DNA from: a virus
DNA length: 64,000 nucleotides
Strand: one strand, 5' to 3'
Virus record (IMG/VR): IMGVR_UViG_3300032299_001015
Location: 1 to 64,000 of that record
Position numbers and translations under genes: made by a program. The notes under the pieces were generated by a model, which worked only from the letters and a program-made list of their open reading frames with translations, was not told the origin of the DNA and did not search any database. The first letter of the stretch is position 1. Every line of letters begins with the position of its first letter. This document shows positions 22,405 through 63,998 of this stretch, in pieces.

Positions 22405-24516
22405 TTATACAGTAAATGTAGAAGATGTTGTCCATGCGCTGACTCCAACTGCATTTACAGATCTTACTCTAGCCTGGTGTGTACCTTCTGTAATGCCTGT
22501 GATTGTTGTGGTAAAAGTAGAAGAAGAAAATGTTCCAACAGCAGTCCAACTAGCACCACCTATTTTCTGCCTTTCTACTTGATATCCTGTTATTGGACTT
22601 CCTCCCGTTGAAGAAGCCGCCCCCCAGTCTATTCTGAATGATGTTCTTGAAAGCCTTGTTCCGCTAACACTACTCGGTGCCCCTGGAATAGTTGGGGTAG
22701 TTTGTGAGGTGGTATTTGAATAAGAACTTGCACCAACTGCATTAAAAACCCTCATTCTGTATACATATACACTTCCTGCCGACAAACCAGAGTCTAAATA
22801 TGTGGTTGTGCCAACCGCAACATTTGTTAAAAATTGATAATTCGCAGAATTTACCGACCTCTCTATTTGTTGTGCTGTTATTGCGCTCCCACCATTAGAA
22901 CCTAAAGACCAAGATAGATTTATAGAATTTATTCCTACTAATCCAGAAGAAAGACTTGGCGCAGCGGGAACCGTTGGTATAAAAACTGATTGAGCAGTAG
23001 AGAATGGTCCCGTCCCTGCTTCATTAATTGCAGCAACCCTATGCCAATATGTAACTCCTGAGGTAAATCCAGAAAATGATATTGAATTTCCTGAAGTGTT
23101 TTGAATAAAACTGAACCCAGATGTTGAACTTGTTGTTGACCTTTCAATCCGGTATAGAGAAATTGTTCCTCCACCATCAGATGGAGTAGTCCATGATAAA
23201 TCTATTCCAGTTGTTCCGTTTAAAGTTGCAGTAAGAGATGGAGTTCCAGGAAGATTCGGCGTTGGGGTGGTAAAACTTACAGAATCTTCTGATGAACCGA
23301 ACTGGTTTCCAAGTGTGACCGTTGCGTTATAGGTTATGCCTCCAACTACAGACATGACAACTGAAGTTGCTCCAGAAGTTACTGTTCCAGTATCTACCGC
23401 ACCAAAATCTAACTGTACCCGATATGTTGTTTGATTTGTTGAGTTCCATGATATTGTTGCATTTCTAGTAGTAATACTGGTGGCAGTAACATTACTTATA
23501 GTTGGCTTATATCCAACAGTACCTAATGTAGACGGTGCTAAAACGTCGGTCCAATCTGAAAATGTTGAGGCAAGTAAAAGTCTGGCTCCAACCCTGCAAG
23601 TAACATAATATCCATTGTCGGATGCTGATAGGGTGTAGGTAGAAGATGTTGCACCTGAAATATCTGTCCAGGTAGAATTATTTAAACTTCTTACCCATTG
23701 ATACCTATAGTATAAAGTTCCTGTTCCTGACCATGTGCCATTTGTTACTGATCTAGATTCCCCAATAGCCCTTGATCCAGATATTTCTGGAAGAACAGTA
23801 TTTACTGGTGGGGGAGGTGGGTCGGTAGTAAAATCAGAACCTGTCTGTGCCGCAGTATTTCCAGTAGAAGACGCAATTATTATTTGCGGAGTGTAGGTAG
23901 TGCTTGGATCTAATCCAGTAAAAGTATATGTTCTTGCAGAAGTACTTGATATTGTCCCAGAATCTATCTGGCCTGTGCCATCGCCAGAAGGAAAATATAA
24001 AATTATTCTATATGTTGTTTGATTTGTAGAATTCCATGAGAAAGAAGCCTGATTAAAAGTTTTAGAAGTAAGAGTAAAATTGCTAACAGTAGGAATAACA
24101 GGAATTATCGCTATTGTTGTATCCGAAGCCATAGTGTTTGTTTCTGAATACACTCTTAAAACAATAGAATATACCACTCCCGTAGACAGTCCAGTAATAG
24201 TATATGTTTTTAAGTTTGTATACACAAGTCCTGTTTGCTGTTGGGTTCCTCCTTGCGGAGTATATAATATATTAATATATTCCTGATACTCTGAATCCCA
24301 ATTTATAGTTATGGAATTTGCTCCATAACTAATACTAGTTATAGATACTGTTGGAGTTAGGGTTCCAAATACTACCGTCCATCCAGTCATAGTGGATGCT
24401 GCTGGTTCATAAACCCATGCTACATTAACATTTCTCCAATTTGCACCATCAAAAACTGAAGGTTGATTTACTAGTCTCCAATTAGAGCCATCGAAAACAC
24501 GCATTTCTTTAGCCAT
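22405..24516 (-). CDS. Fibronectin type III / Ig-like repeat virion protein
   Basis: Repeated ITINW..YT.TGL..Y and P..P..W..DGG.I..Y.IERS..RV.A.N..G FN3 patterns. Confidence 0.85.
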   Translation of the reverse strand: MAKEMRVFDGSNWRLVNQPSVFDGANWRNVNVAWVYEPAASTMTGWTVVFGTLTPTVSITSISYGANSITINWDSEYQEYINILYTPQGGTQQQTGLVYTNLKTYTITGLSTGVVYSIVLRVYSETNTMASDTTIAIIPVIPTVSNFTLTSKTFNQASFSWNSTNQTTYRIILYFPSGDGTGQIDSGTISSTSARTYTFTGLDPSTTYTPQIIIASSTGNTAAQTGSDFTTDPPPPPVNTVLPEISGSRAIGESRSVTNGTWSGTGTLYYRYQWVRSLNNSTWTDISGATSSTYTLSASDNGYYVTCRVGARLLLASTFSDWTDVLAPSTLGTVGYKPTISNVTATSITTRNATISWNSTNQTTYRVQLDFGAVDTGTVTSGATSVVMSVVGGITYNATVTLGNQFGSSEDSVSFTTPTPNLPGTPSLTATLNGTTGIDLSWTTPSDGGGTISLYRIERSTTSSTSGFSFIQNTSGNSISFSGFTSGVTYWHRVAAINEAGTGPFSTAQSVFIPTVPAAPSLSSGLVGINSINLSWSLGSNGGSAITAQQIERSVNSANYQFLTNVAVGTTTYLDSGLSAGSVYVYRMRVFNAVGASSYSNTTSQTTPTIPGAPSSVSGTRLSRTSFRIDWGAASSTGGSPITGYQVERQKIGGASWTAVGTFSSSTFTTTITGITEGTHQARVRSVNAVGVSAWTTSSTFTV

Positions 24517-25772
24517 TATGTATACCTTAAATGTATATCGCCAGTCGTTCTGCCAGAACCAGGCGGGTCTCCTGTACCAAAAGTTATTTTATTTGCTGGG
24601 GTCGGGGTAGTTATTGCATTTTTGTAAGCATTTCCCGCAGCGATATTGGTAAGTTGAGATCCATCGCCATAAAAAACTGAAGCAACAACGCTAGCGGTTG
24701 TTATCTTTCCATATACTAATAAATTTTTACTGGAGACATTAGTTCCTACAGAAGCATCACCCCCAACAACAAGAGTCGTTGAAGTGGATATAGCGTTGGT
24801 CTCTGGATCAATATCTCCTATATAAAAAGTATTTATGCCGCTAGAAATAGATTCTAAACTAATAATTGATCCGCCGTCAGTACCTATAGACATTCCAGTA
24901 TATGTTGTCGCCCCTTGGCTATACCTGACAGCATTAGAATATGCTGTTCTAGAGTTTGTGCTGTCATACCATTCTATGCGTCCCTGTGGAAGAATTTGAA
25001 TTCTATCTACTGCTGCTCCAGGTAGTGCTGTTCTAAAGACTAAACCAGTAAATGACCCACTTGTAATAGAGTTTCCACTTATGGATGTTACATAACTATT
25101 TACCTCTGATCCTTCAATAAACCCAGAAATATCACTATCAGTGGCATATCCACCTATCGTTACCGTTCCAGTATTTGCATTAATATTAAATGTCTGACTG
25201 CCTGATGTATTATAAGCAGTAAGACCAGAGTTATTTAAAACTAATCCTCCAGTTGTAGAAGCAGTTTCAGATGTAAGAAGCCCACCATTTACTATGAGAT
25301 TTCCAGATATTTCACCCTCTGTTGCCTCAATTCTGCCTCTAACCGCCACGTTTGTAAAAATGGCATTACCGCCAGAAGTAATAGTCCAACCCTGACTACC
25401 TAAATCTTTATTATCCCAATCTTCATATCTAACATCTACTTGATCAGTAAAGTCATAAACGACCGCCGTTAATTCATTATTATCATCTATGTATCCTATA
25501 GTTATATTTGTTGACGGAGTATCTTCTAAATCTATATCATCATATGACACTGAGACAACTGCATAATAATTTTGATTATCTAATAGTATAAGCATTCCAG
25601 GCTTGATATCTTCAGCATCTATAGTTTCTTCTATTACTGGGATGGTGCCGTTGAAATTTGATGAAGACAGGTACGGAGATATAAATTTAAAACCGCCATC
25701 GTCATCTATATAATATTGGGCAGAGTTAAGATTGGAGTTAGAAATTTCTGGATTAAAATTATTTGTTGTCAT
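24516..25772 (-). CDS. Minor tail / tail fibre protein
   Basis: GNAIFTNVAVRG, FYGDGSQLTNI, C-terminal TGDIHLRY. Confidence 0.7.
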   Translation of the reverse strand: MTTNNFNPEISNSNLNSAQYYIDDDGGFKFISPYLSSSNFNGTIPVIEETIDAEDIKPGMLILLDNQNYYAVVSVSYDDIDLEDTPSTNITIGYIDDNNELTAVVYDFTDQVDVRYEDWDNKDLGSQGWTITSGGNAIFTNVAVRGRIEATEGEISGNLIVNGGLLTSETASTTGGLVLNNSGLTAYNTSGSQTFNINANTGTVTIGGYATDSDISGFIEGSEVNSYVTSISGNSITSGSFTGLVFRTALPGAAVDRIQILPQGRIEWYDSTNSRTAYSNAVRYSQGATTYTGMSIGTDGGSIISLESISSGINTFYIGDIDPETNAISTSTTLVVGGDASVGTNVSSKNLLVYGKITTASVVASVFYGDGSQLTNIAAGNAYKNAITTPTPANKITFGTGDPPGSGRTTGDIHLRYT

Positions 25773-26660
25773 CTACTTATTCCCTCCTTCTTTTGCCTTG
25801 CCCCATATAGCCTCATCAGATGAGTTAGTCTGAACCCATTCTTTTTTCCATGTGTCACCATTGTATGTATATCTAGCAATGGCTACATAAAAAATAAAAT
25901 TTTCTTTATCGTTAATAGTAAAGTTAGATGAGTAAGATTTCTGACCACGATATTTTATCACAGCATCTCTATTTGGGGGATTTTTGTCATTCACTTCATT
26001 ATCATCAACCATCAACTTTCTTTTAACCCCAGCGCTATTATTTCCTTTAAATCTTTTATAGGCAAATATAGGAATATCTTCCATCATCCCGCCTTTTTTT
26101 GGACCAGGAAGAACTTCAGTAACGAGTCCATCTAAAACTTCTTTTGGAATACTTACTGTATATTTTCTTGTTTTTACAGATCCAGTAATTTCTTCTAAAG
26201 ATCCTGATGCATTGCCAGAGGCTTGAGTTGGTTGAAAAGAATTACTTACCCTTAAAAATATATAGCGAGCATCTTGATTAGTATCTTTAATTACCTTAAA
26301 ATTTCTGTTATTTAATTGAGCAAGTTTGGGATCTGATGATACCAGATTTATTGTTTCTCCTGGTTGTAACTCATTGGCCTGCTTTGCATTGTTTAGTAAA
26401 ATTTTTAATTTATAGAAACTGCCGCCAATATTTGCACCTTTTGCATATTTAGAAAAACCATAGTTTCCTTTTGTTTTTTCTCTCTCTGGCCCTTTTTCAT
26501 TTTTTAGAGTAATGTTTTCTATTCTACTTAATAGAGGCGCAGCATTTGGAGTATCAAAATCGAACTCCATGTTTTTTCCATATCCAAAAAATGACATTTC
26601 TACTCTAAATGTAATTTTTTTATTAGGGTCAAGATTCTTGTCTATGCTTAGGCTGCTCAT
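25773..26660 (-). CDS. Hypothetical protein in tail module
   Basis: 295-aa ORF, position. Confidence 0.6.
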   Translation of the reverse strand: MSSLSIDKNLDPNKKITFRVEMSFFGYGKNMEFDFDTPNAAPLLSRIENITLKNEKGPEREKTKGNYGFSKYAKGANIGGSFYKLKILLNNAKQANELQPGETINLVSSDPKLAQLNNRNFKVIKDTNQDARYIFLRVSNSFQPTQASGNASGSLEEITGSVKTRKYTVSIPKEVLDGLVTEVLPGPKKGGMMEDIPIFAYKRFKGNNSAGVKRKLMVDDNEVNDKNPPNRDAVIKYRGQKSYSSNFTINDKENFIFYVAIARYTYNGDTWKKEWVQTNSSDEAIWGKAKEGGNK

Positions 26661-27613
26661 GCCACTCCATGATTAAAATCTATTGCTAAAGAATATTCTA
26701 TTGTAAGTGGTATGCCTGCTGGCTTTCTTATTGGAGATGGAAGGGTTGCCCTAGAAACCATTCCAGTAGTAGTATCAATAACATAGGAGCCGATATCTAT
26801 TCTCAGTCCGTCCAAGTATATTGGACTGGCACTGTTCTGCCAAATTCTTGAAGAAGTAATAGTATTCCAAGAAGGATTGCCATTAATTACAGCCGCACCT
26901 TTCTGTATTTCAGACAGGTAATATCCTGAGGCACTAGGAATAGGAAATACTAAATCATAATAGTTTAATGAATCTGTATAAAATCTAAAGTTTACACTAG
27001 AACTTTGAGTATTTATATCAAATCCAGCAAGCCTAAAAGTATCTTGAGAGGAATAGTTTCCTATTACTGACAAAGTATTATCTGTTGCCCCGTATGAAAT
27101 ATAAGAATTTACCCCATCTGTAGTAGGTAGATAGAACAATGATGTTCCTATTCTAGCCTCCACTGCTTCTACTAAAAATGAGCCAGATGCAGTTCCAAAT
27201 TTATTGAATAGATCTACTCTATCAAAATCAAATATCGTAGAACCTGCTAAACCAACATTAGCATTACGAACTTGTGAAGGGAATAGGCCCACTTCATAGA
27301 TTTGATATTGATACGGATCAGTTAGTGTGGCTGTATAGATTAAAACATCATTATTATTAGATATATCTAAGGATGAGCCTATTACTGCCGCCCTTCCTAA
27401 TTCAAACTGCAAGGACTTATCAGTTACTAATTTAGTGGTAGGATTTATTGAATTTGCTTTATCACCAATTCCATAGGCAATGCTGCCAGCAAAATTAGGA
27501 ATAATGCCAAGAAGAGATTTAATAGCGATTGTTCTGCCATTTTCGGTCAGGGCATTTTTTTGTTCGGCTATCAACTCATCATTACAATAGAATCTATATA
27601 TTCCAGTTATCAT
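26657..27613 (-). CDS. Minor tail / baseplate-like protein
   Basis: KNALTENG..IYEVGLF..IRK...LTIEYSL pattern. Confidence 0.6.
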   Translation of the reverse strand: MITGIYRFYCNDELIAEQKNALTENGRTIAIKSLLGIIPNFAGSIAYGIGDKANSINPTTKLVTDKSLQFELGRAAVIGSSLDISNNNDVLIYTATLTDPYQYQIYEVGLFPSQVRNANVGLAGSTIFDFDRVDLFNKFGTASGSFLVEAVEARIGTSLFYLPTTDGVNSYISYGATDNTLSVIGNYSSQDTFRLAGFDINTQSSSVNFRFYTDSLNYYDLVFPIPSASGYYLSEIQKGAAVINGNPSWNTITSSRIWQNSASPIYLDGLRIDIGSYVIDTTTGMVSRATLPSPIRKPAGIPLTIEYSLAIDFNHGVA

Positions 27614-45565: not shown

Positions 45566-45620
45566 GTAACACCGCCGTTATTAGATTAATTATATTTTAC
45601 TATATTTTGGAATATGGAAA

Positions 45621-45642: not shown

Positions 45643-45663
45643 AAACCAAAAGATATTTAATTA

Positions 45664-46782: not shown

Positions 46783-46814
46783 GCTTTTCTTTACACCTCT
46801 CTTTCTTATTTTAA

Positions 46815-49055: not shown

Positions 49056-49085
49056 AACAATTAAATTATATTATATATAGTCTTA

Positions 49086-50979: not shown

Positions 50980-50997
50980 GTACCTGATAATATCATA

Positions 50998-51846: not shown

Positions 51847-51859
51847 ACTTAATTATAGA

Positions 51860-53205: not shown

Positions 53206-53224
53206 CTTCTCCAAATTTTTGCAC

Positions 53225-53956
53225 TCACAGGTAACTCTTCTTACTCCAGAATTGACTCTTATATGATCTAACAATTTTAGACTTTAACTTAAAACCATTT
53301 TTTTTATTGGCATCCTCATCAAACTCTACCTGTGATGATCTCCAGTCCTCTCTTTTGAAAGGAATCATTTGACATATGGGAGTCCCTGCTTCAAGAACAA
53401 AAATCTCTTCTTTGATTGTGTTAAGAAGTTGGAAGGGAAATTCGACTCCTAGTTCATAGGAGTCTGTATCTACCACCCCAGAAAAAGTTCTGAATGGAAG
53501 GTCGTGTCTATTAAGTGGGTGAGTGAATAAACAACTATAGCCCTTGGGGGTTATTGCCCTCCAGCCAGGACTCCATTTAAGTAAATCCATTCCGCCACCT
53601 ACTGGAGCAGGCAGCCCAGGAGCCTGATCTGGACCGTGAGAGCCTATAAAATTAACATTGGTTGCCCACCGCACATTAATTCCTTTTCCTGGATGATTTC
53701 TAAATTCTAGGTCGAATGGCAGAACAAACATATATCCAGATGTGAGTGCATCAAGGAACGGGGAGCATCCCTTAAGAGTAAGATTGCTTACCGCTACTCC
53801 GTTTTTTGATAACCCAGTTATTTTTTCGCCGTCCATATGAACAGGCATCTTTTTATACCAGCCTGGGATAGACTGTGCTGCTGGCTGCGGCCTTTCAAAC
53901 AGAAGTTCTGCCTCATGACTGAATGGCTCAAATTTTATCTTCATGGCTTTACCCAA
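53225..53956 (-). CDS. Conserved phage protein of unknown function
   Basis: IPGWYK, KGCSPFLDALTSGY, TPKGYSCLFTHP, GVVDTD, GTPICQMIPFKRE. Confidence 0.65.
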   Translation of the reverse strand: MGKAMKIKFEPFSHEAELLFERPQPAAQSIPGWYKKMPVHMDGEKITGLSKNGVAVSNLTLKGCSPFLDALTSGYMFVLPFDLEFRNHPGKGINVRWATNVNFIGSHGPDQAPGLPAPVGGGMDLLKWSPGWRAITPKGYSCLFTHPLNRHDLPFRTFSGVVDTDSYELGVEFPFQLLNTIKEEIFVLEAGTPICQMIPFKREDWRSSQVEFDEDANKKNGFKLKSKIVRSYKSQFWSKKSYL

Positions 53957-54612
53957 TTCAACTTAAATGTCTTTTGATGTAGAACTCTTACAGATGGGTC
54001 TACCCAAATGTCAAATCCTGACTTGATCGCTTTTGTACACCATGAAAGGTCTTCTCCAATAAGAAGGAAATCTTCAGTTGTTTCCCCTGTTTCTTCATCT
54101 ACACTAGGAACGCTTTCTGGTCCAAACCAGGGTCTGGGCATATTCTCAAATACCCCTGATTTTACTGCAAGGAATCCAAATCCACATCCTGCTACTTTAA
54201 AAGGCTTATGATACTGATCAAGAAGTTCTTCTGGCATCATACCGCCGCGAGGTTGTTGATAAATCGGAATGTGTCTGTCTTCCATGAGATAGCATCCAGA
54301 AATAATTTTCTTATCAGACTTATATAGTCTAAAAACGTCGGCGGGACTCCATGCAATATCTGAATCAATCCACATAATCATGTCATAGGTAAATTCACCG
54401 CTACATGGCTGAGTCATTTTTACATTATTTGTATCGTATCCACCAATGGTTGACTCTCTAGCCATGGCAACAAGTGACCCCCCCTGACTAAGAAAATTCC
54501 AACTTACCCCCTCTTGATTCAGGGCATTAGTAGTAATAAGCAGACTTCTTAGATAGTCTGGAGTAAAAGAATTTGCTGGAGTAGCAAATACTATATTAAA
54601 ATGCGGTTTCAT
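53941..54612 (-). CDS. Glycosyltransferase-like, GT-A fold
   Basis: WIDSDI (DxD), GFGFLAVKSGVFE, GEDLSWC, DPSVRVLH. Confidence 0.8.
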   Translation of the reverse strand: MKPHFNIVFATPANSFTPDYLRSLLITTNALNQEGVSWNFLSQGGSLVAMARESTIGGYDTNNVKMTQPCSGEFTYDMIMWIDSDIAWSPADVFRLYKSDKKIISGCYLMEDRHIPIYQQPRGGMMPEELLDQYHKPFKVAGCGFGFLAVKSGVFENMPRPWFGPESVPSVDEETGETTEDFLLIGEDLSWCTKAIKSGFDIWVDPSVRVLHQKTFKLNWVKP

Positions 54613-55272
54613 TTATCCCCTTATAGCGATCTTCTTATGATGACATACTTTTATGCTGGGGTCAAGATAAATTTTATATCCTGCTTCCCCCGCTTTTTTG
54701 CACCAGGAAAAATCTTCTCCCCAAGGTATATACATCTCTTTAGTTTTATCTTCATTCTCTATTTTTTGAAATACTACGTCGAACCATGGGCGAGGAATAT
54801 TTTCAAATACCCCAGATTTCATTGAAACAAATCCGAATCCTACTGCAAAGACCTCAAACGGGTATTCTTTTCTTTTTAATAAGTCGTGGTCAAAATAAAT
54901 ATCGTCTTCTTTGAAACTAAAGAGCGGTACGTTTTCTTCATTATAGTAGACTCCAGAAACTACATCGTATGACGATTCGTACAACTTCATAAATTGATCT
55001 GGTTCCCAAGAAATATCTGAGTCTATCCAAACTATTTTGTCATACGTTACCTGACTGTTTACTGGTTCTGTGGCAAAAGCATGAAGAAAACGTGATCCCA
55101 TTATTGTTGCTTCCCGCGCTGCATTTACTTGAGAGGAATACTCATTTAGATATAAATAAGATATGCCTATTTTTTCTAAATGGGAAATAGTTGCAACAAG
55201 ACTTCTTACATATTCTGCCTCCATCATTCTTCCAGGAGTGCAAATTAATACATTATAGTGGGGCTTCAACAT
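54613..55272 (-). CDS. Glycosyltransferase-like, GT-A fold (paralogue of neighbour)
   Basis: WIDSDI, GFGFVSMKSGVFE, GEDFSWC, DPSIKVCH. Confidence 0.8.
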   Translation of the reverse strand: MLKPHYNVLICTPGRMMEAEYVRSLVATISHLEKIGISYLYLNEYSSQVNAAREATIMGSRFLHAFATEPVNSQVTYDKIVWIDSDISWEPDQFMKLYESSYDVVSGVYYNEENVPLFSFKEDDIYFDHDLLKRKEYPFEVFAVGFGFVSMKSGVFENIPRPWFDVVFQKIENEDKTKEMYIPWGEDFSWCKKAGEAGYKIYLDPSIKVCHHKKIAIRG

Positions 55273-56083
55273 TCCTCCAAAACTCTAATCCATTATATTT
55301 ATTAAGAATATAAGGTGAAAGATATTCACCAATATTTATTCTACGATGCTCAATTGATTGGCGAACGTTGTGTAACCCTTCAATACCGTAGATTCTATCA
55401 TCTTCTGGGGTTATATTAACTATTTTATTATAGTTATGATCAAAGTATTCTAGGCCAAGGAAGTCATAGATGCCCTTGATAGTTTCATCTGTCCTGCCAA
55501 CCAAATTGTCATACTCAACAATGTGAAAATATTGTCTATTTTCTTCTAGCATCGCATAGGCAATTCCATACAAACACTCATCAATAAGTCCTTTTGGACG
55601 CATCAAATGGTCACATCTAATTTCATCAGGATGGCGGTAGTAATAAAACTCCTGCCTTGCTTCTATTTCCTGATCAATAAATGAAGTCTTCTGTGGATTT
55701 TGATTAATCATATAGATAAAAGAGGCAAGAATTTCATTTATGTTTCTCACCGTCAAAATTACCTTAGGGTCATAGGGGAGATTTCTTAGTAGTGTTCCAA
55801 AGTTTTCTTTTGTTGACCATGATCGTGACTTATCAATAATATTAGGCTTATTTATATCTGAATAATAATTTTCTAGTACCCCATAAACCGTGGGAGAAAT
55901 GACATGAGGTTTTGGGTATGCATTATATTGTTCAGACGCTAAAATACTACGTTCAAGATTAACCATCATCCCACACATGGGGGAGTTTGGTCCTGAATAA
56001 ATTTCTGGGTTTTGATTTAAAATTGATGATAAAAGTGTGCTTCCAGACCTTGGAAGGCCGGAAAGAAAATAAAACTTACTCAA
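55253..56083 (-). CDS. Sulfotransferase family protein
   Basis: 5'-PSB loop GLPRSGSTLL, DKSR, R....ILAS, VEYDNLV. Confidence 0.88.
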   Translation of the reverse strand: MSKFYFLSGLPRSGSTLLSSILNQNPEIYSGPNSPMCGMMVNLERSILASEQYNAYPKPHVISPTVYGVLENYYSDINKPNIIDKSRSWSTKENFGTLLRNLPYDPKVILTVRNINEILASFIYMINQNPQKTSFIDQEIEARQEFYYYRHPDEIRCDHLMRPKGLIDECLYGIAYAMLEENRQYFHIVEYDNLVGRTDETIKGIYDFLGLEYFDHNYNKIVNITPEDDRIYGIEGLHNVRQSIEHRRINIGEYLSPYILNKYNGLEFWRNVEAPL

Positions 56084-56096
56084 TGGTTTTTCCTAT

Positions 56097-59000
56097 CTAC
56101 TCTAGGCCAATTATATCATTTACAGTTGATGCAGATACAGGAATTGTGACGGTAGTCCATATAGTTAAATCAGTAGACGAATATACAGCATTAGTTCCTT
56201 GAATTTGATAGGTGCTGCCAAATTTTGCCATTTTTTGTAGGGAATCATTAATTAAAGAATAGGGCAAAGAAGTTCTTAATTTTCCTGTGTTTCCTCCTGC
56301 AATCCATAGGCCGTTGCCGTAGGCTACGGAGCGGATTAAGGTAGTTCCAAAGTTAGAAGTTTGGGTTGTCCAGGTCACGCCATCGGTGGAGGTGCGAAGT
56401 TGCCCTTGCTCTGCTGATGCTATCCATATGCCATTGCCATAGGCTATGGAGTGGATGGTGGTGTTGCCAAAGTTAGAGTTTTGGGTGGTCCAGGCAACAC
56501 CATTAGTGGAGGTTCTTAGTTGTCCTGCAACGCCTCCTGCTATCCATAGGCCGTTGCCGTAGGCTACGGAGCGGATGCTGGTGCTACCAAAGTTAGAGGT
56601 TTGGGTTGCCCAGGTTATGGTGTCGGTGGACGTACGGATTTGGCCTGTGTATCCGCCTGCTATCCATAGACCGTTGCCATAGGCTACGGATTGGATTTGG
56701 GTGTTGCCAAAGTTAGAAACTACTGATACCCAGGTTGTATTATCTGTAGATGTTGAAATATTTCCTAAAGTAGTTACTATCACCCACCTATTACTATTAT
56801 GTGACACAGATGTAATACCGTTTGTAGTTAATCTATCTTCTCCGTCCCAGGTTACGCCATCGGGGGAGGTACGGAGTTGACCTGTGTAGCCTCCTGCAAT
56901 CCATAGGCCGTTGCCGTAGGCGACGGAGAGGATCATGCTGTTGCCAAAGTTAGAAGTTCGGGTAGTCCAGGTCACGCCATCGGTGGAGGTGCGGATTTGG
57001 CCCGTTAATCCGCCTGCTATCCATAAGCCGTTGCCATAGGCTACGGAGCGGATGTTGGTGTTGCCAAAGTTAGAAGTTCGGGTTGTCCAGGTAGTGCCAT
57101 TGGTGGAGGTACGGAGGGTGCCTGTGTATCCTCCTGCAATCCATAGGCCGTTGCCATAGGCTACGGAGAGGATAGCGGTACCGCCAAAGTTAGAAGTTCG
57201 GGTAGTCCAGGTCACGCCATCGGTGGAGGTTCTCATTTGGCTATCGCTGCCTGACACTATCCATAGGCCGTTGCCATAGGCTACGGAGAAAATGGTGTTG
57301 GTAGAGCCAAAGTTAGAGGTTCGGCTAGTCCAGGTAGTGCCATCGGTGGAGGTTCTCAATTGGCCTCCGCTACTTCCTGCTATCCATAGGCCGTTGCCAT
57401 AGGCTACGGAGTAGATAGGATTGCTCCCAATAAAGCCAGAAGTTTGGGTAGTCCAAGTAACGCCATTGGTGGAAGTGCGGATTTGGGCACCTTCCCCTAC
57501 TGCTATCCATAGGCCGTTGCCATAGGCTACGGAGCGGATGTTGGTAGCGCCAAAGTTGGAGGTTTGGGTAGTCCAGGTTGTGCCATTAGTGGAGGTGCGG
57601 ATTTGGCCTGTTAATCCGCCTGCTATCCATAGACCGTTGCCATAGGCTACGGAGTAGATTGCGGTGGTACCAAAGTTAGATGCTATTCCACTAGTTCCAA
57701 TATTAAAGTTTACTGTATTCCAAGTAATGGTGTCTGTGGAAGTTCTACCCTGACCACTATACGCACCTGCTATCCATATGCCATTGCCATAGGCTACGGA
57801 GTAGACGCTGACGCTGCCAAAGTTAGAGTTTTGCGTAGTCCAGGTTACGGTATCGGTGGAGGTGCGGATTTGACCTGCACTTCCTACTGCTACCCATAGA
57901 CCGTTGTTATATCCTACGGAGAATATTACACTATTTCCAAAGTTAGAGGTTTGCTCTTTCCAAGTAGCACCTTGAATTCCCCCAGATGAAGAACTAGCGA
58001 ATACTTGAGTGACCCATGTACTTCCATCTGTTGACCGCCAAAATGTTCCAGAATTTACAACGGCAAAAGCGGTGGAAGCAGTAGAAAACATTCCATTTAC
58101 CGCCGTTGGTCCAGATACTGTTGTCCAAGTTTCTGCATTTGTTGAACTTAAAGTAGATGATGCTGATGAAAAGGCGTAAAAAGAATTATTGAAAGAATGT
58201 AATTTATAGTTATTTGGCAATATTGATGAGTTTTCAGAGGTGCGGAGTTGTCCGGTGCTGCCTCCTGCTATCCATAGGCCGTTGCCATAGGCTACGGAGT
58301 TGATGTTAGTGGCACCAAAGTTGGAGGTTTGGGTAGTCCAGGTTACGCCATCGGTGGAGGTACGGATTTGTCCTGTGTATCCGCCTGCTATCCATAGGCC
58401 GTTGCCATAGGCGACGGAGAGGATGTTAGTGCTGCCAAAGTTGGAGGTTTGGGTGGTCCAGGTTGTGCCATTGGTGGACGTACGGATTTGTCCTGCGTAG
58501 CCCCCTGCAATCCATAAACCGTTGCCGTAGGCTACGGAGGCGATGGTGGTGTTTAAGTTAGAGGTTTGCGTGGTCCAAGTGACGCCATTGGTGGAGGTTC
58601 TTAATTGGCCTGCGTTACCTCCTGCTATCCATAAGCCGCTGCTATAGGCTACGGAGCGGATGATATTGAAACCAAAGTTAGAGGTTTGTGTTGTCCAGGT
58701 TACGCCATTGGTGGAGGTGCGGATTTCTCCGTCGCCTCCTCCTGCAATCCATAGGCCGTTGCCATAGGCTACGGAAAAGATTCCGAGGATGTTGGTGATA
58801 CTAAAGTTAGAGGTTTGGGTAGTCCAGGTTACGCCATCGGTGGAGGTTCTCAATTGGCCGCCGGAGGCTCCTGCAATCCATAGGCCATTGCCATAGGCTA
58901 AGGAGCGGATGGTGGTGTTGCCAAAGTTGGAGGTTTGGGTTGTCCAGGTGACGCCATTGGTAGAGGTTCTCAGTTGTCCTGAAAGACCTCCTGCAATCCA

Positions 59001-59312
59001 TAGGCCATTGCCATAGGCTACGGAGTTGATGGTGGTGCTACCAAAGTTAGAGTTTTGGGTGGTCCAGGAAACTCCTAATCTATTATATATAGTATTAAAT
59101 GTTCCTAAAGATTGTGTTGCTTGAAGTGATCTTAGAACTACTCCATTACTCAATACAGCCGACCAAATGTTATTAGCATAAGCAATAGAAGAAATACTTC
59201 CACTAGTAACGGCGGGGGAAATAAAGGTAGTGCTATTGGTAGCATCTGGATCAAGGTTTATTGTTGCACTTGACCAAGTAATGCTATTTGTAGAATATCT
59301 AATTTCTGTCAT
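56097..59312 (-). CDS. Multi-beta-propeller repeat protein B
   Basis: 20 conserved plus several degenerate 40-aa Asp-box-like blades; ATG 59312 after AGGCGGTGA. Confidence 0.85.
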   Translation of the reverse strand: MTEIRYSTNSITWSSATINLDPDATNSTTFISPAVTSGSISSIAYANNIWSAVLSNGVVLRSLQATQSLGTFNTIYNRLGVSWTTQNSNFGSTTINSVAYGNGLWIAGGLSGQLRTSTNGVTWTTQTSNFGNTTIRSLAYGNGLWIAGASGGQLRTSTDGVTWTTQTSNFSITNILGIFSVAYGNGLWIAGGGDGEIRTSTNGVTWTTQTSNFGFNIIRSVAYSSGLWIAGGNAGQLRTSTNGVTWTTQTSNLNTTIASVAYGNGLWIAGGYAGQIRTSTNGTTWTTQTSNFGSTNILSVAYGNGLWIAGGYTGQIRTSTDGVTWTTQTSNFGATNINSVAYGNGLWIAGGSTGQLRTSENSSILPNNYKLHSFNNSFYAFSSASSTLSSTNAETWTTVSGPTAVNGMFSTASTAFAVVNSGTFWRSTDGSTWVTQVFASSSSGGIQGATWKEQTSNFGNSVIFSVGYNNGLWVAVGSAGQIRTSTDTVTWTTQNSNFGSVSVYSVAYGNGIWIAGAYSGQGRTSTDTITWNTVNFNIGTSGIASNFGTTAIYSVAYGNGLWIAGGLTGQIRTSTNGTTWTTQTSNFGATNIRSVAYGNGLWIAVGEGAQIRTSTNGVTWTTQTSGFIGSNPIYSVAYGNGLWIAGSSGGQLRTSTDGTTWTSRTSNFGSTNTIFSVAYGNGLWIVSGSDSQMRTSTDGVTWTTRTSNFGGTAILSVAYGNGLWIAGGYTGTLRTSTNGTTWTTRTSNFGNTNIRSVAYGNGLWIAGGLTGQIRTSTDGVTWTTRTSNFGNSMILSVAYGNGLWIAGGYTGQLRTSPDGVTWDGEDRLTTNGITSVSHNSNRWVIVTTLGNISTSTDNTTWVSVVSNFGNTQIQSVAYGNGLWIAGGYTGQIRTSTDTITWATQTSNFGSTSIRSVAYGNGLWIAGGVAGQLRTSTNGVAWTTQNSNFGNTTIHSIAYGNGIWIASAEQGQLRTSTDGVTWTTQTSNFGTTLIRSVAYGNGLWIAGGNTGKLRTSLPYSLINDSLQKMAKFGSTYQIQGTNAVYSSTDLTIWTTVTIPVSASTVNDIIGLE

Positions 59313-61230
59313 TTTAATCACCGCCTACAAAATATGAAATAAAAGAACCTGCTGATGCAGAGGTTCTCAGTTGGCCTGCGTTACCTACTGCTATCCATAG
59401 ACCGTTGCCATAGGCTACGGAGTTGATGTTAGTGGCACCAAAGTTAGAGGTTTGGGTGGTCCAGGTGACGCCATTGGTGGAGGTGCGAAGTTGCCCTTGC
59501 TCTGCTCCTGCCATCCATAGACCGTTGCCATAGGCTACGGAGCGGATGGTGGTGTTGCCAAAGTTGGAGGTTTGGGTAGTCCAGGTTACGCCATCGGTGG
59601 AGGTACGGATTTGTCCTGTGTATCCGCCTGCTATCCATAGGCTATTGCCATAGGCTACGGATCGGATGTTGGTGCTACCAAAGTTGGAGGTTTGGGTGGT
59701 CCAGGTTACGCCATTGGTGGAAGTGCGGATTTCTGTGTATCCGCCTGCTATCCATAGGCTATTGCCATAGGCTACGGAGCGGATGGTGGTGTTGCCAAAG
59801 TTGGAAGTTTGGGTGGTCCAGGTTGTGCCATTGGTGGACGTACGTAGTTGGCCTGTGTTTCCTCCTGCTATCCATAGGCCGTTGCCATAGGCTACGGAGC
59901 GGATGGGGGTAGCGCCAAAGTTAGAGGTTTGTGTGGTCCAGGTAACGCCATTGGTAGAGGTGCGTATTTCTCCTGTGTTACCTACTGCTATCCATAGACC
60001 ATTGCCATAGGCTATGGAGAATATGTTGGTAGCGCCAAAGTTAGAGGTTTGGGTTGCCCAGGTTATGGTGTCGGTAGAGGTACGGATTTGTCCGGCGTAG
60101 CCTCCTGCAATCCATAGGCCATTGCCATAGGCTACGGGGAAGATATTGGTATTGCCAAAGTTAGAGTTTTGAGTAACCCAAAAAACTCCAGCAGGTTGAG
60201 TATCACCTCCACCATATTCTACAACTTTAATATTTCCTGTCATTCCTGTATTTACTGAAGTCCAAGATGTTAAATTGGTGGAGGAGAATAATTTTCCATC
60301 GTCCGCCGCCACAAATGTAGTAGATGCTGATGGGATATATTCTATGTCGTTTATTGGGGAATATGCTGATGTATATGTCTGAGGTGAAGTTATAATTTGG
60401 CCTGCGAATCCTCCTGCAATCCATAGGCCGTTGCCATAGGCGACGGAGAGGATACGGGTCGCCCCAAAGTTAGAGTTTCGGGTTGTCCAGGTAACGCCAT
60501 CGGTGGAGGTACGGATTTGGCCTGTGTATCCGCCTGCTATCCATAGGCCGTTGCCATAGGCGACGGAGAGGATGGTAGTGCTGCCAAAGTTGGAGGTTTG
60601 GGTGGTCCAGGTGACGCCATTGGTGGACGTGCGGATTTGTCCAGACCGTCCTCCTGCTATCCATAGGCCGTTGCCATAGGCTACGGAGTTTATGTTGGTG
60701 CTACCAAAGTTGGAGGTTTGGGTGGTCCAGGTAGTGCCATCGGTGGAGGTACGGAGTTGTCCGTATTCGCCTCCTGCAATCCATAGGCCGTTGCCATAGG
60801 CGACGGAGAGAATGGCGCTTTCGAAGTTGGAGGTTCGCGTGGTCCAGGTAGTGCCATCGGTGGAAGTGCGGATAGCGATGGACAAAAATTCTGGGGTGCC
60901 TCCTCCTGCAATCCATAGGCCGTTGCCATAGGCTACGGAGTTGATTTGGGTGTTGCCAAAGTTAGACGTTCGGGTTGTCCAGGTAGTGCCATCGGTGGAG
61001 GTGCGGATTTGTCCTGTGTATCCGCCTGCTATCCATAGGCCGTTGCCATAGGCTATGGAGTTGATGGTGGTGTTGCCAAAGTTAGACGTTCGGGTTGTCC
61101 AGGTAGTGCCATTGGTGGACGTACGTAGTTGGCCTGTGGTTCCTCCTGCTATCCATAGGCCGTTGCCATAGGCTACTGAGCGGATGATGGTGGTACCAAA
61201 ATTAGAGTTTTGTGTGGTCCAGGTAACGCC
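56268..61230 (-). repeat. 34 coding ~120-nt repeats, consensus WTTQTSNFGxTxIxSVAYGNGLWIAGGxxGQ(I/L)RTST(D/N)G(V/T)T
   Basis: 120-nt periodicity visible; near-invariant atccataggccgttgccataggc core. Confidence 0.97.
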
Positions 61231-61407
61231 AGTATTTGCGGGGTCTGGAGTAGTTCCCTGTCCAGTATTAAATCCAGATATTTGAGCGGTAGTGTTAGTT
61301 GAATCAATAGAATAAAGAAGGCCAGATGAGGTGCCAAAGAGGAACTGTCTTACCCCCGCCGATATTTTTTTAGAACTAGAAAGAATACCTACCCAAATAC
61401 CACTCAT
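59314..61407 (-). CDS. Multi-beta-propeller repeat protein A
   Basis: Two blocks of 7 conserved 40-aa blades. Confidence 0.85.
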   Translation of the reverse strand: MSGIWVGILSSSKKISAGVRQFLFGTSSGLLYSIDSTNTTAQISGFNTGQGTTPDPANTGVTWTTQNSNFGTTIIRSVAYGNGLWIAGGTTGQLRTSTNGTTWTTRTSNFGNTTINSIAYGNGLWIAGGYTGQIRTSTDGTTWTTRTSNFGNTQINSVAYGNGLWIAGGGTPEFLSIAIRTSTDGTTWTTRTSNFESAILSVAYGNGLWIAGGEYGQLRTSTDGTTWTTQTSNFGSTNINSVAYGNGLWIAGGRSGQIRTSTNGVTWTTQTSNFGSTTILSVAYGNGLWIAGGYTGQIRTSTDGVTWTTRNSNFGATRILSVAYGNGLWIAGGFAGQIITSPQTYTSAYSPINDIEYIPSASTTFVAADDGKLFSSTNLTSWTSVNTGMTGNIKVVEYGGGDTQPAGVFWVTQNSNFGNTNIFPVAYGNGLWIAGGYAGQIRTSTDTITWATQTSNFGATNIFSIAYGNGLWIAVGNTGEIRTSTNGVTWTTQTSNFGATPIRSVAYGNGLWIAGGNTGQLRTSTNGTTWTTQTSNFGNTTIRSVAYGNSLWIAGGYTEIRTSTNGVTWTTQTSNFGSTNIRSVAYGNSLWIAGGYTGQIRTSTDGVTWTTQTSNFGNTTIRSVAYGNGLWMAGAEQGQLRTSTNGVTWTTQTSNFGATNINSVAYGNGLWIAVGNAGQLRTSASAGSFISYFVGGD

Positions 61408-63998
61408 ACTGTTAAATCACCTATAGCAACCCAAGTATCTGTTCCACGTTTTATTAACGTAGCAGCAGACCATTGACCAACAAGTTTTGTCGCACCTCCG
61501 CTAGAGTTTAGGGTGACACCAGAAACATATGATGCTGTTACTTGTCCTGCACCAGTCTGAAGTATATCAATTTTAGTTCCTGTTGGAAATGCTTGAGTTG
61601 AATTAAGTGGAATAACTAATGTTATTGGGCTAGCGTTATTTAATTCAACCAAGTCTCCAGCATCACTTAATACTAATGAATAAGATGTTCCAGACTGAGC
61701 ATTAGTAATAATATTCATTGCAGTAGTTATAGAGATCTGACCATTTTGTAAATCGGTTAGTGTAGCGCTTGCCGCACCAGTTACAATTCCTGTTAAATTA
61801 ATTCCAATAATAGGATCGGGTTTATTTGTAACTCCATCCCAATTAATACTAGAGGCACTTGTTGAAAAACTAGTATTTGTTACAATAGATATTTGTCCAT
61901 TTGCTAAGTCAGTAAGCGTTGCTGAAGCAGCGCCAGTAGTATTTCCAGTAAGTGAAACCCCTATTACTGGATCTGGTATATCTGTGACTCTGCTCCAATT
62001 TATAGAAGATGCAGTATTAGCATTTCCTAAAAGAGCGCCTGTAAATGTTTGAGCAGATGCATTACCACTTATAATTGCTGATCCAATTACATGCAGTTCA
62101 GTAACGGGACTAAAAGTACCTATACCAACCCTTTTACTGCTAGTAAGATTTAATACTGGAGTTGGACTTCCTACTGAATCTCCTGTATAAAAAGACATAT
62201 TAGATGGAATACCACTAGCAGAACTATTTGCAACTGATTCTACAGTTATATATGAAGAATTTTTTACTACTCCATTAATGTCAGGTCCTTGGAAAATAAT
62301 TGTTCCAAGATCCATTCCAATTAGGGCTGCAGATGCACCAGGAGATTTAGAAAATATTAAATACCCTGAATTATCTAAAGCATTAGTATTTCTAATAACA
62401 AGTTGTGGGCTAAATTCAGTTGCCTGAGATAAAATTAAATTACCGCTTAATGTTCCTAAACTTGTTAAACTTGAGTTAACAATAGATGAGGGAAGAGTTG
62501 TTCCTGTAATTAATGAAGAATTAATGGATGATGCTGTGTTAGCATGATTAGCCGTACTTCCAATAGACATATATAATGTAGAGGCAGTGGTTCTAGTTAG
62601 ATATGCCTGAGATGCAGATACAGGAATATATCCAGAAACTATTGCAGCAGATGATGTGACTCTAATATATGCTGATGCTGCATCTGATTGTTTAAGATAT
62701 GTAGCGCTTGCTCCAGCGGCATTTTGATAGTATAATCCATGTTGACCATCAAGCATATCTGCGTTAAAGTTAGTGACGGTTACACTTGAAGAAACTTCTA
62801 ATGCTGCTATCTGTAGTACCCCAAATTCTACAGATGGATCTGAATAGTTAATAGTATTATTGACTGCTGCTGGCCCTTTTGAAAGAAGTTTCCATTTATT
62901 TTGTGAAGCATCTCTTGCAAAAGATGTATGATAATGATTTGCAGAAGATGTTGTACCATCGCCATAAGATCCAACTATACCAATATCTACAGCATCTGTT
63001 GTATATTGTTCATGTGCCAGTTGAATAAGTGAGTCTGTAAGTGCTAAGTTTGTTGAAGTAATTGTTGTAGCACTTCCTGTAATAACTAAGTTATTAATAT
63101 TAACGGTTCCATGGAACGTTGTTGTTCCCGTTCTTTCTTGGGTTGCACTAGAAGTATTAAGAAAATATGATGCATGTTGACCATCAAGTAAATCGGCATC
63201 TATTCCTGATCCCGCTCCGTCAACCTCTGTAATAGCCGTTGCAAGATTTTGATTAAACCATACACTAGATGACGCATTGTATGAAATAATGTCATTGTTT
63301 GTAACACTATTTATTAAAACGTCATGTAGTTCACCTAACTCATAACCGTTCTGAACATTAACAAAAAGTTGACCATTTCCAGCATTTGCTCTTTCTACAA
63401 CACCAATAAAAACTGTATGTTTTGGAGCAGAAGGTTTAACGCTAGTAAATTTACCAGCAGAAGCAGATAACCATAAAGTATCTCCAGGTGAATATGCACT
63501 TAAGTTAAGTTTATCGACAACGCCAAATATAGTAACAAAACCTTGACCTCCTGTTGTTATTGCCTCTGCTACCACCCCTAAACTTTTAGCAGATGTGGAA
63601 TCTGATGTGTTAATTGCTTTTTTAACAGATGCTCTATCTCCTGACGCTCCAAATAAATAAACAACATCACCTTTAACAAGAGGGGAACCTTCAGCATTTG
63701 TTACATATGCATGAACATGCTGTCCGATATGAGCAGTAATGTTACCGCCGATTAAACCAATTTCGGGAGTTCCAAAAGAAGAATTCCATTGGAATCTACC
63801 TACGCCTAGAGGTACTGTTCCAGAAAGATCAAGGTCTATACCGCCAATAGAAAATATTCCAGAAGCACTTCTAGAAACTAATGTGTTAGGTATATTTAGA
63901 GGAGTTCCAGAGGCTGATCCACCTCCGCGACCGTCACCAACTAGAACCCATGTAGACGCTGAAGACCATGCATATAGGCTACTTGCACTAATCCATAG
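61404..63998 (-). CDS. Fibre/adhesin-like virion protein, 5' end outside window
   Basis: Frame open to the window edge by hand translation; DADLLDGQH twice, ELGELHDV, C-terminal DTWVAIGDL domain. Confidence 0.8.
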   Translation of the reverse strand, partial: LWISASSLYAWSSASTWVLVGDGRGGGSASGTPLNIPNTLVSRSASGIFSIGGIDLDLSGTVPLGVGRFQWNSSFGTPEIGLIGGNITAHIGQHVHAYVTNAEGSPLVKGDVVYLFGASGDRASVKKAINTSDSTSAKSLGVVAEAITTGGQGFVTIFGVVDKLNLSAYSPGDTLWLSASAGKFTSVKPSAPKHTVFIGVVERANAGNGQLFVNVQNGYELGELHDVLINSVTNNDIISYNASSSVWFNQNLATAITEVDGAGSGIDADLLDGQHASYFLNTSSATQERTGTTTFHGTVNINNLVITGSATTITSTNLALTDSLIQLAHEQYTTDAVDIGIVGSYGDGTTSSANHYHTSFARDASQNKWKLLSKGPAAVNNTINYSDPSVEFGVLQIAALEVSSSVTVTNFNADMLDGQHGLYYQNAAGASATYLKQSDAASAYIRVTSSAAIVSGYIPVSASQAYLTRTTASTLYMSIGSTANHANTASSINSSLITGTTLPSSIVNSSLTSLGTLSGNLILSQATEFSPQLVIRNTNALDNSGYLIFSKSPGASAALIGMDLGTIIFQGPDINGVVKNSSYITVESVANSSASGIPSNMSFYTGDSVGSPTPVLNLTSSKRVGIGTFSPVTELHVIGSAIISGNASAQTFTGALLGNANTASSINWSRVTDIPDPVIGVSLTGNTTGAASATLTDLANGQISIVTNTSFSTSASSINWDGVTNKPDPIIGINLTGIVTGAASATLTDLQNGQISITTAMNIITNAQSGTSYSLVLSDAGDLVELNNASPITLVIPLNSTQAFPTGTKIDILQTGAGQVTASYVSGVTLNSSGGATKLVGQWSAATLIKRGTDTWVAIGDLTV

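Follow-up and report, generated by a model that had tools for sequence, protein, structure and literature searches.

The tripeptides SAS and TAS ([ST]AS) are enriched in the virion proteins of an uncultured freshwater actinophage known from metagenomic data, and across phages this excess co-varies with a glycosyltransferase gene, referred to here as GT385. The window, i.e. the whole stretch of DNA analysed, comprises 64,000 nt within an 84-kb genome (G000). A WhiB-like gene at 79711-79902 of the genome (E 1e-17), a marker for actinobacterial hosts, points to an actinobacterium as host, and the capsid protein is 41% identical to capsids of Streptomyces phages. Judging from sequence data, [ST]AS may be an O-glycosylation sequon read by GT385, a reading to which we assign a probability of about 50%.

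The excess was detected in an unbiased scan of all 8000 tripeptides, composition-corrected and carried out across the 84-kb genome, in which TAS (33 occurrences vs. 11.2 expected) and SAS (37 vs. 15.3) took ranks 1 and 2. In the genomes G000 to G004 both are found within ranks 1 to 5 of approximately 6500 tripeptides. Each position of the motif is specific: among the xAS tripeptides only those with x = S (2.4x) or T (3.1x) are enriched, A is the enriched middle residue of [ST]xS, and S is the enriched third residue of [ST]Ax. GAS, AAS, SAG and TAT stay at about 1, SAT reaches just 1.5 and DAS 0.7x. Charged residues make up 2-7% of the positions after the motif vs. 14% in the background. Since 46 occurrences are encoded by 34 distinct 9-nt codon strings, the motif is a feature of the protein level. 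In G000, 57 sites fall in structural proteins, where 19 are expected, and 2 in replication proteins, where the expectation is 3.5; this bias recurs in unrelated GT-positive phages. A preliminary description of this DNA had asked for composition-corrected statistics and shuffling controls; the excess persists in both, including local shuffles of 10-residue blocks (9 vs. 1.5 in a 282-aa protein, 14 vs. 2.6 in a 1071-aa protein), and is stronger than originally claimed. No [ST]AS enrichment was found in lambda, TP901-1 and Wakanda, which served as controls.

The following structural proteins of the window were compared:

24516-25772, minus strand: distal tail protein, 2 sites
26657-27613, minus strand: tail protein (phrog_9983), 3 sites vs. 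0.46 expected
33578-41404, minus strand: tape measure protein, internal negative control, 1 site vs. 3.8 expected at 12.4% Ala
42178-42951, minus strand: tail tube protein, 2 sites, both inside an insertion of some 30 aa rich in Ala, Gly and Ser
44651-45565, minus strand: head-tail adaptor-like protein (phrog_442, head-tail adaptor), 3 sites
45664-46782, minus strand: major capsid protein, 2 TAS sites, both where the sequence is variable
50998-51846, minus strand: lectin-like jelly-roll protein of 282 aa, directly upstream of the portal, 9 sites
56097-61407, minus strand: two propeller proteins rich in repeats (G+C 48.5% over 56-60 kb), present only in G000 and G003
61404-63998 in the window, minus strand: fibre protein (full ORF 61404-64109, 901 aa), 12 sites

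Our recount agrees with the initial numbers for the 282-aa protein, fibre, adaptor, phrog_9983 tail protein, capsid, tail tube, propellers (5, as 3 + 2) and DnaE (2), and with the lack of sites in portal, protease fusion, RecA and DnaB. The tape measure protein, described initially as free of the motif, contains one site (aa 604). The nine sites of the 282-aa protein (0.85 expected) were reached in 0 of 2000 shuffles; its 115 homologues contain on average 6.4 sites, where 0.52 would be expected, with conservation of 70-91% at five of the sites. The fibre exceeds expectation (12 vs. 2.9, or 3.6 under 10-aa local shuffles, p=0.0003), with permuted versions of the motif likewise slightly elevated, as does the adaptor (0.19 expected, p ~0.001). 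Just outside the window, the 1071-aa protein has 14 sites vs. 1.5 expected at an Ala content of 4.3%. The propeller proteins are not enriched, with 3 sites vs. 2.7 expected in one and 2 vs. 1.4 in the other, and portal and protease fusion, with 0 sites each, are at or under expectation. Relatives sharing the N-terminus of the distal tail protein carry many more sites, with 16 vs. 1.4 expected in G003 (813 aa) and 22 vs. 4.2 in G004 (1479 aa), and the G004 orthologue of the phrog_9983 tail protein has eight. The pairs in capsid and tail tube are not significant alone and become meaningful only through comparison with relatives. Both capsid sites are conserved in G000 to G004, whereas the corresponding columns of the GT-negative genomes G016 to G019 (capsids 54-56% identical) lack them. 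The tube insertion with its sites is not present in GT-negative relatives nor in Wakanda; tail tubes of GT385-positive phages have 2-5 sites at non-homologous loops, compared with 0 in five GT-negative tubes.

Sites are mostly located in loops and lineage-specific insertions, and they are conserved, yet gained or lost between relatives. The exposure of the sites is a prediction, based on secondary structure and on gaps in the alignments. For the 282-aa protein (AF2 model, pLDDT 88.6; nearest folds pentraxin, LamG and CBM40 domains, Z ~7), seven of nine sites are wholly coil vs. 32% background (p=0.007). Its sites are kept across the 115 homologues though synonymous codons differ. Members of the 1071-aa family differ in where their sites lie, with S and T exchanged, and maintain the total number; orthologues from the GT-negative sister clade have 0-2 sites vs. 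14. At homologous columns SAS is frequently replaced by SGS and SSS. These sequence patterns indicate that [ST]AS is under selection. The earlier idea of a short tag acquired convergently on exposed virion proteins and tied to a phage glycosyltransferase is supported, as the motif is position-specific, kept despite synonymous codon changes, confined to structural proteins and gained in non-homologous loops of unrelated proteins.

The glycosyltransferase which tracks the motif lies outside the region dealt with in the preliminary description (22405-63998), next to a gene which accompanies it in 8 of 11 enriched genomes:

423-1580, minus strand: GT385, core GT4-like GT-B glycosyltransferase of 385 aa (phrog_7162, E 6e-31; AF2 model)
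1664-2308, minus strand: 214-aa protein, possibly a lytic transglycosylase

The AF2 model of GT385 (pLDDT 92.8, pTM 0.90) and Foldseek show the two Rossmann-like domains of a GT-B fold. The best Foldseek matches are MshA, BshA, PimA, GlgM and PglA (E 3e-15 to 1e-13, TM 0.57-0.67), and SdgB and L. reuteri GtfC are also among the matches. PF13692 scores 21.3 bits on GT385, under the cut-off of 27; some homologues have a precomputed PF13692 or PF13524 annotation, and PF00534 did not match those of G002 and G004. A putative C-terminal acidic/Lys nucleotide-sugar binding motif, FNEAKSxLKGxEYAxxGxPF, is invariant in homologues down to 32% identity. A fold search in BFVD returned solely uncharacterised viral glycosyltransferases as top matches. 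For the 214-aa neighbour, Pfam, PHROG and NCBIfam searches gave no match; an ESM Atlas match to the SLT family (0.93-0.94) can be taken as a lead only.

Enrichment was observed in 20 of 24 contigs with a GT385 homologue vs. 0 of 7 without (Fisher p=1.3e-4), which is a correlation only; several contigs are fragments, and GT-negative controls are few (seven genomes). Per clade, five clear and one ambiguous of eight GT-positive clades are enriched vs. 0 of 4 GT-negative ones, so that the support for the association at clade level is modest. Phages with a homologue 47-100% identical to GT385 show observed/expected ratios of 2.0-3.5. The sister clade G016 to G019 is nearer to G000 than G006 to G008 are by MCP, portal, DnaE and RNR; GT385 was sought at the syntenic slot and is absent there, and the ratio is 0.84-1.29. 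At the other end, unrelated phages of 50-57 kb and 48-59% G+C have only 5-7 proteins in common with G000 but possess a glycosyltransferase 32-37% identical to GT385, and in four of six SAS ranks 1-3. In a blind test on 10 extra contigs picked by GT homology alone, seven were enriched and three (two clades) showed no enrichment despite large structural ORFs. G014 shows weak genome-wide enrichment, and in one further GT-positive clade the signal is confined to a single repetitive giant protein. The expectation that the motif is missing where the glycosyltransferase is missing is borne out for GT385 and fails for the gene cassette at 52240-56083.

Under the favoured reading, [ST]AS would be a recognition motif on surface loops of fibres, lectin-like, distal tail, tube, adaptor and capsid proteins, and GT385 would glycosylate the Ser/Thr of the motif in the cytoplasm, prior to or during assembly. 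A sulfotransferase/GT island may extend the glycan in some strains without defining the sites. Our inference covers three points: the action of GT385 on proteins, the acceptor role of the motif Ser/Thr and the kind of sugar.

It is possible, if rather doubtful, that selection maintains a genuine motif whose reader is a factor other than GT385, such as a host enzyme (glycosyltransferase, kinase or acyltransferase), a ligand on the host surface or a different protein of the phage. In that case GT385 would modify, e.g., cell wall polymers or DNA, and the co-variation would reflect adaptation to the same hosts. Consistent with this, the closest structural neighbours of GT385 are not protein glycosyltransferases but use glycans, lipids or small molecules as substrates, and glycosyltransferases of freshwater actinophages have elsewhere been proposed to protect DNA or to modify the cell wall (PMC10202952). 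In addition, lysis genes common to G000 and the unrelated high-GC phages are 50-76% identical, which hints at related hosts, and three GT-positive contigs lack the motif. However, GT385 alone among the genes of G000 is found in every enriched genome and is missing from the sister clade. G002 to G004 and G006 to G008 have the glycosyltransferase and the motif, but not the common lysis genes. The GT-negative G016 to G018 also have WhiB and are therefore likewise actinophages. A close cellular homologue of GT385, finally, was not found among 185,579 species genomes (best 21-27% identical).

We regard it as unlikely that [ST]AS is a structural preference, for instance a loop or beta-strand cap in the beta-rich folds of the fibres and lectin-like proteins, that stays unmodified and is linked to the glycosyltransferase by shared ancestry. 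This would fit the beta-strands flanked by sites, the uncharged residues after the motif and the SGS and SSS replacements. However, proteins of unrelated fold carry the motif (the HK97-type capsid, the jelly-roll protein, fibres, the adaptor and insertions of the tail tube), as do phages with almost no proteins common to G000, while orthologues in the GT-negative sister clade as well as lambda, TP901-1 and Wakanda do not show it. The strict requirement for A in the middle and S at the end is also unusual for a turn.

The writers proposed initially belong to a variable island amid the structural genes:

52240-56083, minus strand: variable island with a sulfotransferase, two phrog_1574 paralogues, a DUF6065-like unknown and GT1
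52240-53274: GT1 (PF00534, 49.6 bits)
53941-55272: two weak GT-like paralogues (phrog_1574)
55253-56083: sulfotransferase (PF13469, 57 bits)

From the former count of four glycosyltransferases and a sulfotransferase, GT1 and the sulfotransferase are solid, one is the GT-B enzyme at 423-1580, and the other two are the weak GT-like paralogues. That this cassette writes a (sulfated) glycan on the sites is very improbable in spite of its position and its solid GT1 and sulfotransferase domains. Among enriched genomes it is present in G000 and G003 only and thus does not track the motif; G001, G002, G004 and G006 to G008 lack it and are equally or more strongly enriched. G016, which is not enriched, has distant homologues of three cassette genes (25-33% identical), grouped at 80.9-82.6 kb. 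The suggested link to sulfation is likewise not sustained: homologues of the PF13469 protein were found in G003 (95%) and G010 (36%) only, so that many enriched genomes are without a sulfotransferase. The cassette could still lengthen a glycan begun by GT385. An artefact of chance or of Ser/Thr/Ala-rich composition with post-hoc motif choice can be rejected: although the pooled count for the window is 18 vs. 11.8 (p=0.054) once the 282-aa protein and fibre are set aside, and permuted motifs are somewhat raised in the fibre, the top ranks of the unbiased scan are repeated across independent genomes, the excess survives local shuffling, the 1071-aa protein had not been seen when the motif was proposed, and control genomes are at ~1.0.

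Short glycosylation motifs are known from other systems. The N-X-S/T sequon, which also builds the glycan shields of animal viruses, is N-linked and uses the host ER machinery. Like these shields, [ST]AS is a three-residue surface tag whose sites turn over while the total is kept; unlike them, it would be O-linked in the cytoplasm by a virus-encoded enzyme. The general O-glycosylation motif of Bacteroidota, D-(S/T)-(A/I/L/V/M/T), needs a preceding Asp and belongs to a periplasmic, lipid-linked pathway. [ST]AS similarly has three residues, and in both motifs a small or aliphatic residue comes after S/T, but Asp before [ST]AS is unfavoured and its candidate writer would be a soluble GT-B.

SdgA/SdgB and GtfA/GtfB are GT-B enzymes which add O-GlcNAc to Ser within short repeats of Gram-positive adhesins (PMC8561734, PMC3794999, PMC6973325). 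In these systems cytoplasmic Ser O-glycosylation is set by a context of 2-3 residues (DSD; alternating Ser repeats), and SdgB is a protein O-GlcNAc transferase of GT-B/GT4 fold acting on Ser in short repeats (PMC8561734). GT385 shares the GT-B catalytic fold. However, SdgB and GtfA have a DUF1975 beta-domain inserted in the acceptor-binding half (PMC8561734), for which Pfam gave no match in GT385; according to DSSP, GT385 consists of two alpha/beta domains and a short beta-hairpin (39-56). Their substrates are long disordered tandem repeats, whereas the sites in G000 are single and scattered in loops of folded, unrelated proteins.

Among actinophages, virion glycosylation is documented in the mycobacteriophages Che8 and Corndog (cited from Freeman et al. 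2023 in PMC11600133 and PMC12582341), with capsid and tail tube proteins as modified targets. G000 is similarly a predicted actinobacterial phage with its own glycosyltransferases (GT385, GT1), and capsid and tube hold motif sites in the GT-positive lineage. In contrast to Che8 and Corndog, it is the fibres and the lectin-like proteins that are richest in predicted sites, and the modification is predicted from sequence. The texts consulted do not describe a dispersed tripeptide sequon for actinophage virion glycosylation. With [ST]AS, a candidate for such a sequon is now at hand which is amenable to direct testing.

The Ser/Thr-Ala-Ser tripeptide ([ST]AS, with its two forms SAS and TAS) is a selected, position-specific tag on outer virion proteins. 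Its presence tracks the family of one phage glycosyltransferase, GT385, across lineages with almost nothing else in common, and it is gone in a sister clade without this enzyme. The viral contig under study (G000) comprises 84,401 bp, of which the window covers the first 64 kb, and within the window the minus strand carries nearly all genes. By Pfam and PHROG, portal, prohead protease fusion, adaptor, tail proteins, RecA, DnaB, primase and SSB were recognised, while two large proteins were assigned by size and composition, as in the preliminary description:

12403-15711: DnaE polymerase
33578-41404: tape measure, 2608 aa

The replication module also contains a SpoU-type RNA 2'-O-methyltransferase (4351-4893; PF00588, E 3e-19) that is kept in relatives. 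At 46815-49055, a 746-aa fusion joins a prohead serine protease (Peptidase_S78), an Hva1_TUDOR domain and a C-terminal region, which gave only weak, below-threshold Pfam matches and may be a coiled coil.

The hand counts of [ST]AS in the preliminary description were all reproduced, except that the tape measure holds one site. Expected counts were derived from 2000 within-protein shuffles.

[ST]AS sites in proteins of the window
282-aa protein (50998-51846): 9 observed, 0.85 expected
Fibre: 12 observed, 2.9 expected
Adaptor: 3 observed, 0.19 expected
Protein at 26657-27613: 3 observed, 0.46 expected

The enrichment withstood shuffling within 10-residue blocks (9 vs 1.5 in the 282-aa protein, 12 vs 3.6 in the fibre). 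The signal of the window lies mostly in these two proteins; without both, the pooled count is 18 vs 11.8 (p=0.054). What decided the question was the remainder of the genome, with a further protein located 2.4 kb past the window end:

66384-69599 of the genome, minus strand: 1071-aa protein, 14 sites vs 1.5 expected

This protein carries the densest motif load of the genome despite just 4.3% Ala; it has LamG-like sequence features, but no Pfam match. In the composition-corrected scan of every tripeptide, TAS (33 vs 11.2) and SAS (37 vs 15.3) occupied ranks 1 and 2. Structural proteins of G000 (22.4-69.6 kb) contain 57 sites vs 19 expected, and its replication proteins 2 vs 3.5. At or below expectation are also the tape measure (1 vs 3.8), the portal (0) and the protease-scaffold fusion (0). 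No enrichment was seen in two propeller proteins and a 703-aa protein, which occur only in G000 or in a second contig, G003. The G+C content of 48.5% at 56001-60000 vs ~38-40% elsewhere and a GC skew reversed over the propeller repeats fit a module that was recently acquired or homogenised.

The enzyme whose family follows the motif is a core gene of the lineage and belongs to a PHROG glycosyltransferase family:

423-1580, minus strand: GT385, 385-aa GT4-like glycosyltransferase

The family spans at least 471 clusters at 50% identity (E <= 1e-30), its members occur on no fewer than 549 viral contigs, and no close cellular homologue of GT385 was found. For comparison, whole contigs were picked solely for a GT385 homologue or as relatives without one, the distant lineages being sampled from IMG/VR contigs only.

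GT385 homologues and [ST]AS observed/expected ratios
G000-G004: homologue 65-100% identical; 2.65-3.48
G006-G008: homologue 47-49% identical; 2.0-2.4; pooled, TAS and SAS are the top two tripeptides (p 2e-13 and 3e-11)
Five of six unrelated 50-57 kb phages, 48-59% G+C: homologue 32-37% identical; SAS only, pooled 2.5x (p 7e-20)
G016-G019: no homologue; 0.84-1.29; pooled SAS 1.0x
Lambda, TP901-1, Wakanda: no homologue; 0.8-1.3

The unrelated GT-positive phages have just 5-7 proteins in common with G000, and SAS ranks 1-3 in four of them. Their sites lie in the tail tube, in tail proteins encoded after the tape measure and in small head proteins, with almost none in replication genes. In contig G014, where the signal is weak, a degenerate enzyme was ruled out as the cause, all invariant residues being kept; most of its SAS sites are still in the tail module. 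The GT-negative clade G016-G019 has an MCP 54-56% identical to that of G000, compared with 38-41% for G006-G008, and portal, DnaE and RNR agree; judged from these sequences, G016-G019 are nearer to G000 than G006-G008 are. The GT385 gene was absent from these four contigs, also at the syntenic slot between the genes for a 136-aa and a 119-aa protein. Where the 1071-aa protein of G000 has 14 sites, its orthologues in this clade have 0-2, and the clade's tail tubes have none, while GT-positive tubes have 2-5, in insertions or variable loops at non-homologous positions.

A blind test was made on ten further contigs, selected only by a GT385 homologue of 32-38% identity. The clade G022/G026/G028 was clearly positive (SAS at rank 2 in all three, over 4-7 proteins), and G024/G027 remained positive even minus the repeat-rich top protein (1.8-2.0x, p <= 9e-4). 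In G023/G031 the signal is confined to one giant repetitive protein, and in the GT-positive clades G021/G029 and G025 no enrichment was seen. Overall, 20 of 24 GT-positive and none of seven GT-negative contigs are enriched (Fisher p=1.3e-4, with contigs of the same clade non-independent and several being fragments); by clade, these are five clear and one ambiguous of eight GT-positive, and none of four GT-negative. Giant repeat proteins with the motif in tandem-repeat form (unit P-R-[ST]-A-S-[AG]-S-G) are found at G027:4657-9714 and G024:8750-11161, both phages having a distant GT385 homologue, and in G023 and G031 a domain with four motif sites per copy is repeated.

The main rival explanation has the motif read by something else, with motif and GT385 both following the host. 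Two loci beyond the window bear on the host:

73933-74431 of the genome, minus strand: r1t-type holin (PF16945, E 1e-18) and adjacent 88-aa protein
79711-79902 of the genome, plus strand: WhiB-like gene (PF02467, E 1e-17), an actinophage marker

Together, the holin and the WhiB-like gene identify G000 as a phage of an actinobacterium, probably a low-GC freshwater one given its 40% G+C. The capsid is 41% identical to that of large Streptomyces siphophages, with the same portal-flanking gene order. A search for cellular homologues of GT385 that might identify the host returned only generic glycosyltransferases of 21-27% identity. The WhiB-like gene was also found in G010 and in the GT-negative G016-G018, so these three of the four sister contigs are actinophages as well. 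The holin and the 88-aa protein recur at 50-56% and 71-76% identity in otherwise unrelated phages of 48-59% G+C, which suggests that the lysis cassette was exchanged among phages of related hosts.

The preliminary description had regarded [ST]AS as a candidate sequon for phage glycosylation or sulfation, linked to the four glycosyltransferases and the sulfotransferase of the window. The cassette that it pointed to is:

52240-56083, minus strand: sulfotransferase, two phrog_1574 paralogues, DUF6065-like protein of 243 aa, GT1

Presence and absence across genomes ruled out this cassette as the writer: only G000 and G003 have it, yet G001, G002 and G004 are equally enriched (2.7-3.5x), and G016 shows no enrichment despite distant homologues (25-33% identical) of three of the cassette genes, which lie together at 80.9-82.6 kb. 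Sulfation as the basis of the motif lost its support in the same way, since the cassette with its sulfotransferase does not follow the enrichment; the cassette might extend a glycan. It sits in a hypervariable island upstream of the 282-aa gene (51846-61407; compared over loci L001-L040), whose contents differ greatly among relatives with 98-99% identical head genes. G001 and G002 carry three DUF6065-like (phrog_7084) paralogues there instead of cassette and propellers.

The tripeptide itself is sharply defined. In the pooled data of four related genomes, AS is preceded more often than expected only by S (2.4x) and T (3.1x), A alone stands out at x in [ST]xS, and S alone at x in [ST]Ax; GAS, AAS, SAG and TAT are at ~1.0 and SAT at 1.5. 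An extended motif was rejected, the flanks having no strong consensus and as their sole feature few charged residues and Pro right after the motif. A DNA-level motif was ruled out as well, with 46 sites using 34 different 9-nt strings and conserved sites varying synonymously, and so was the idea that internal repeats produced the signal in G000, given that no similar flanks surround the 14 sites in the 1071-aa protein. It is unlikely that the motif is purely structural or an artefact.

For the 282-aa protein, 117 metagenome homologues were found, and an alignment of 115 sequences (query and 114 homologues) has a mean of 6.4 sites vs 0.52 expected. Those at residues 53, 99, 141, 158 and 191 are present in 70-91% of the sequences, with synonymous variation in all three codons, and others are gained or lost; their spacing is irregular. 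In the AF2 model (pLDDT 88.6), the N-terminal part forms a lectin-like jelly roll, which matches pentraxin, LamG and CBM40 domains at Z ~7. Seven of the protein's nine sites are wholly coil (p=0.007), mostly where an inter-strand loop begins. BLASTP detected no relatedness to the 1071-aa protein (E > 2). In more distant relatives (L030-L040), a homologue of the latter is encoded directly upstream of the 282-aa gene. Within the 1071-aa family, a few sites are kept from G000 to G004 (38% identity) and many are lineage-specific; position 1 alternates between S and T, and relatives show SSS, SGS or TSS at the same columns. The tail tube (42178-42951) has at residues ~115-165 an Ala/Gly/Ser-rich insertion of ~30 aa, which is specific to G000-G004 and missing from relatives without GT385 and from Streptomyces phage Wakanda.

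The simplest candidate mechanism is that GT385 O-glycosylates virion proteins, adding a sugar to Ser/Thr within [S/T]-A-S, to which we give about an even chance. Its GT-B model (pLDDT 92.8) has as nearest neighbours the GT4 enzymes MshA, BshA, PimA, GlgM and PglA; that these are not protein glycosyltransferases argues against such a role. The same fold is found in SdgB/GtfA, whose glycosylation targets are Ser residues in a minimal context that recurs (PMC8561734), but these have an acceptor-binding insertion that GT385 lacks. More broadly, we consider a virus-encoded O-glycosylation code, at a probability of about 0.42. Here, a phage-specific GT4-like family would recognise a minimal S-A-S, with some lineages also accepting T at the first position ([S/T]-A-S), and phages with such an enzyme would place the tripeptide in exposed loops of virion proteins that are not otherwise related. 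Its sites would be gained and lost like those of animal-virus glycan shields, and islands that differ between strains (GT1, GT-A-like proteins, sulfotransferase) would add variety to the glycan.

To our knowledge, phage virion glycosylation is known only from a few cultured actinophages. In the searchable literature, neither a dispersed tripeptide sequon that belongs to a specific viral enzyme family nor a sequence rule for sugar placement on phage virions was found. Virion glycosylation by phage glycosyltransferases is documented for mycobacteriophages (PMC11600133, PMC12582341, citing Freeman 2023), and glycosyltransferases of freshwater actinophages have been assumed to act in DNA protection or cell wall alteration (PMC10202952). 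The approach is general: orphan modifying enzymes can be matched to target motifs by pairing composition-corrected tripeptide scans with the presence and absence of genes. If [S/T]-A-S is the acceptor code of the GT385 family, enzyme and sequon would form a pair for in vitro testing and possibly glyco-engineering, and for hundreds of uncultured freshwater phages the sequence alone would suffice to predict virion glycosylation sites. In these abundant phages, the rapid turnover on the surfaces of fibre and tail could then be read as glycan-shield evolution.
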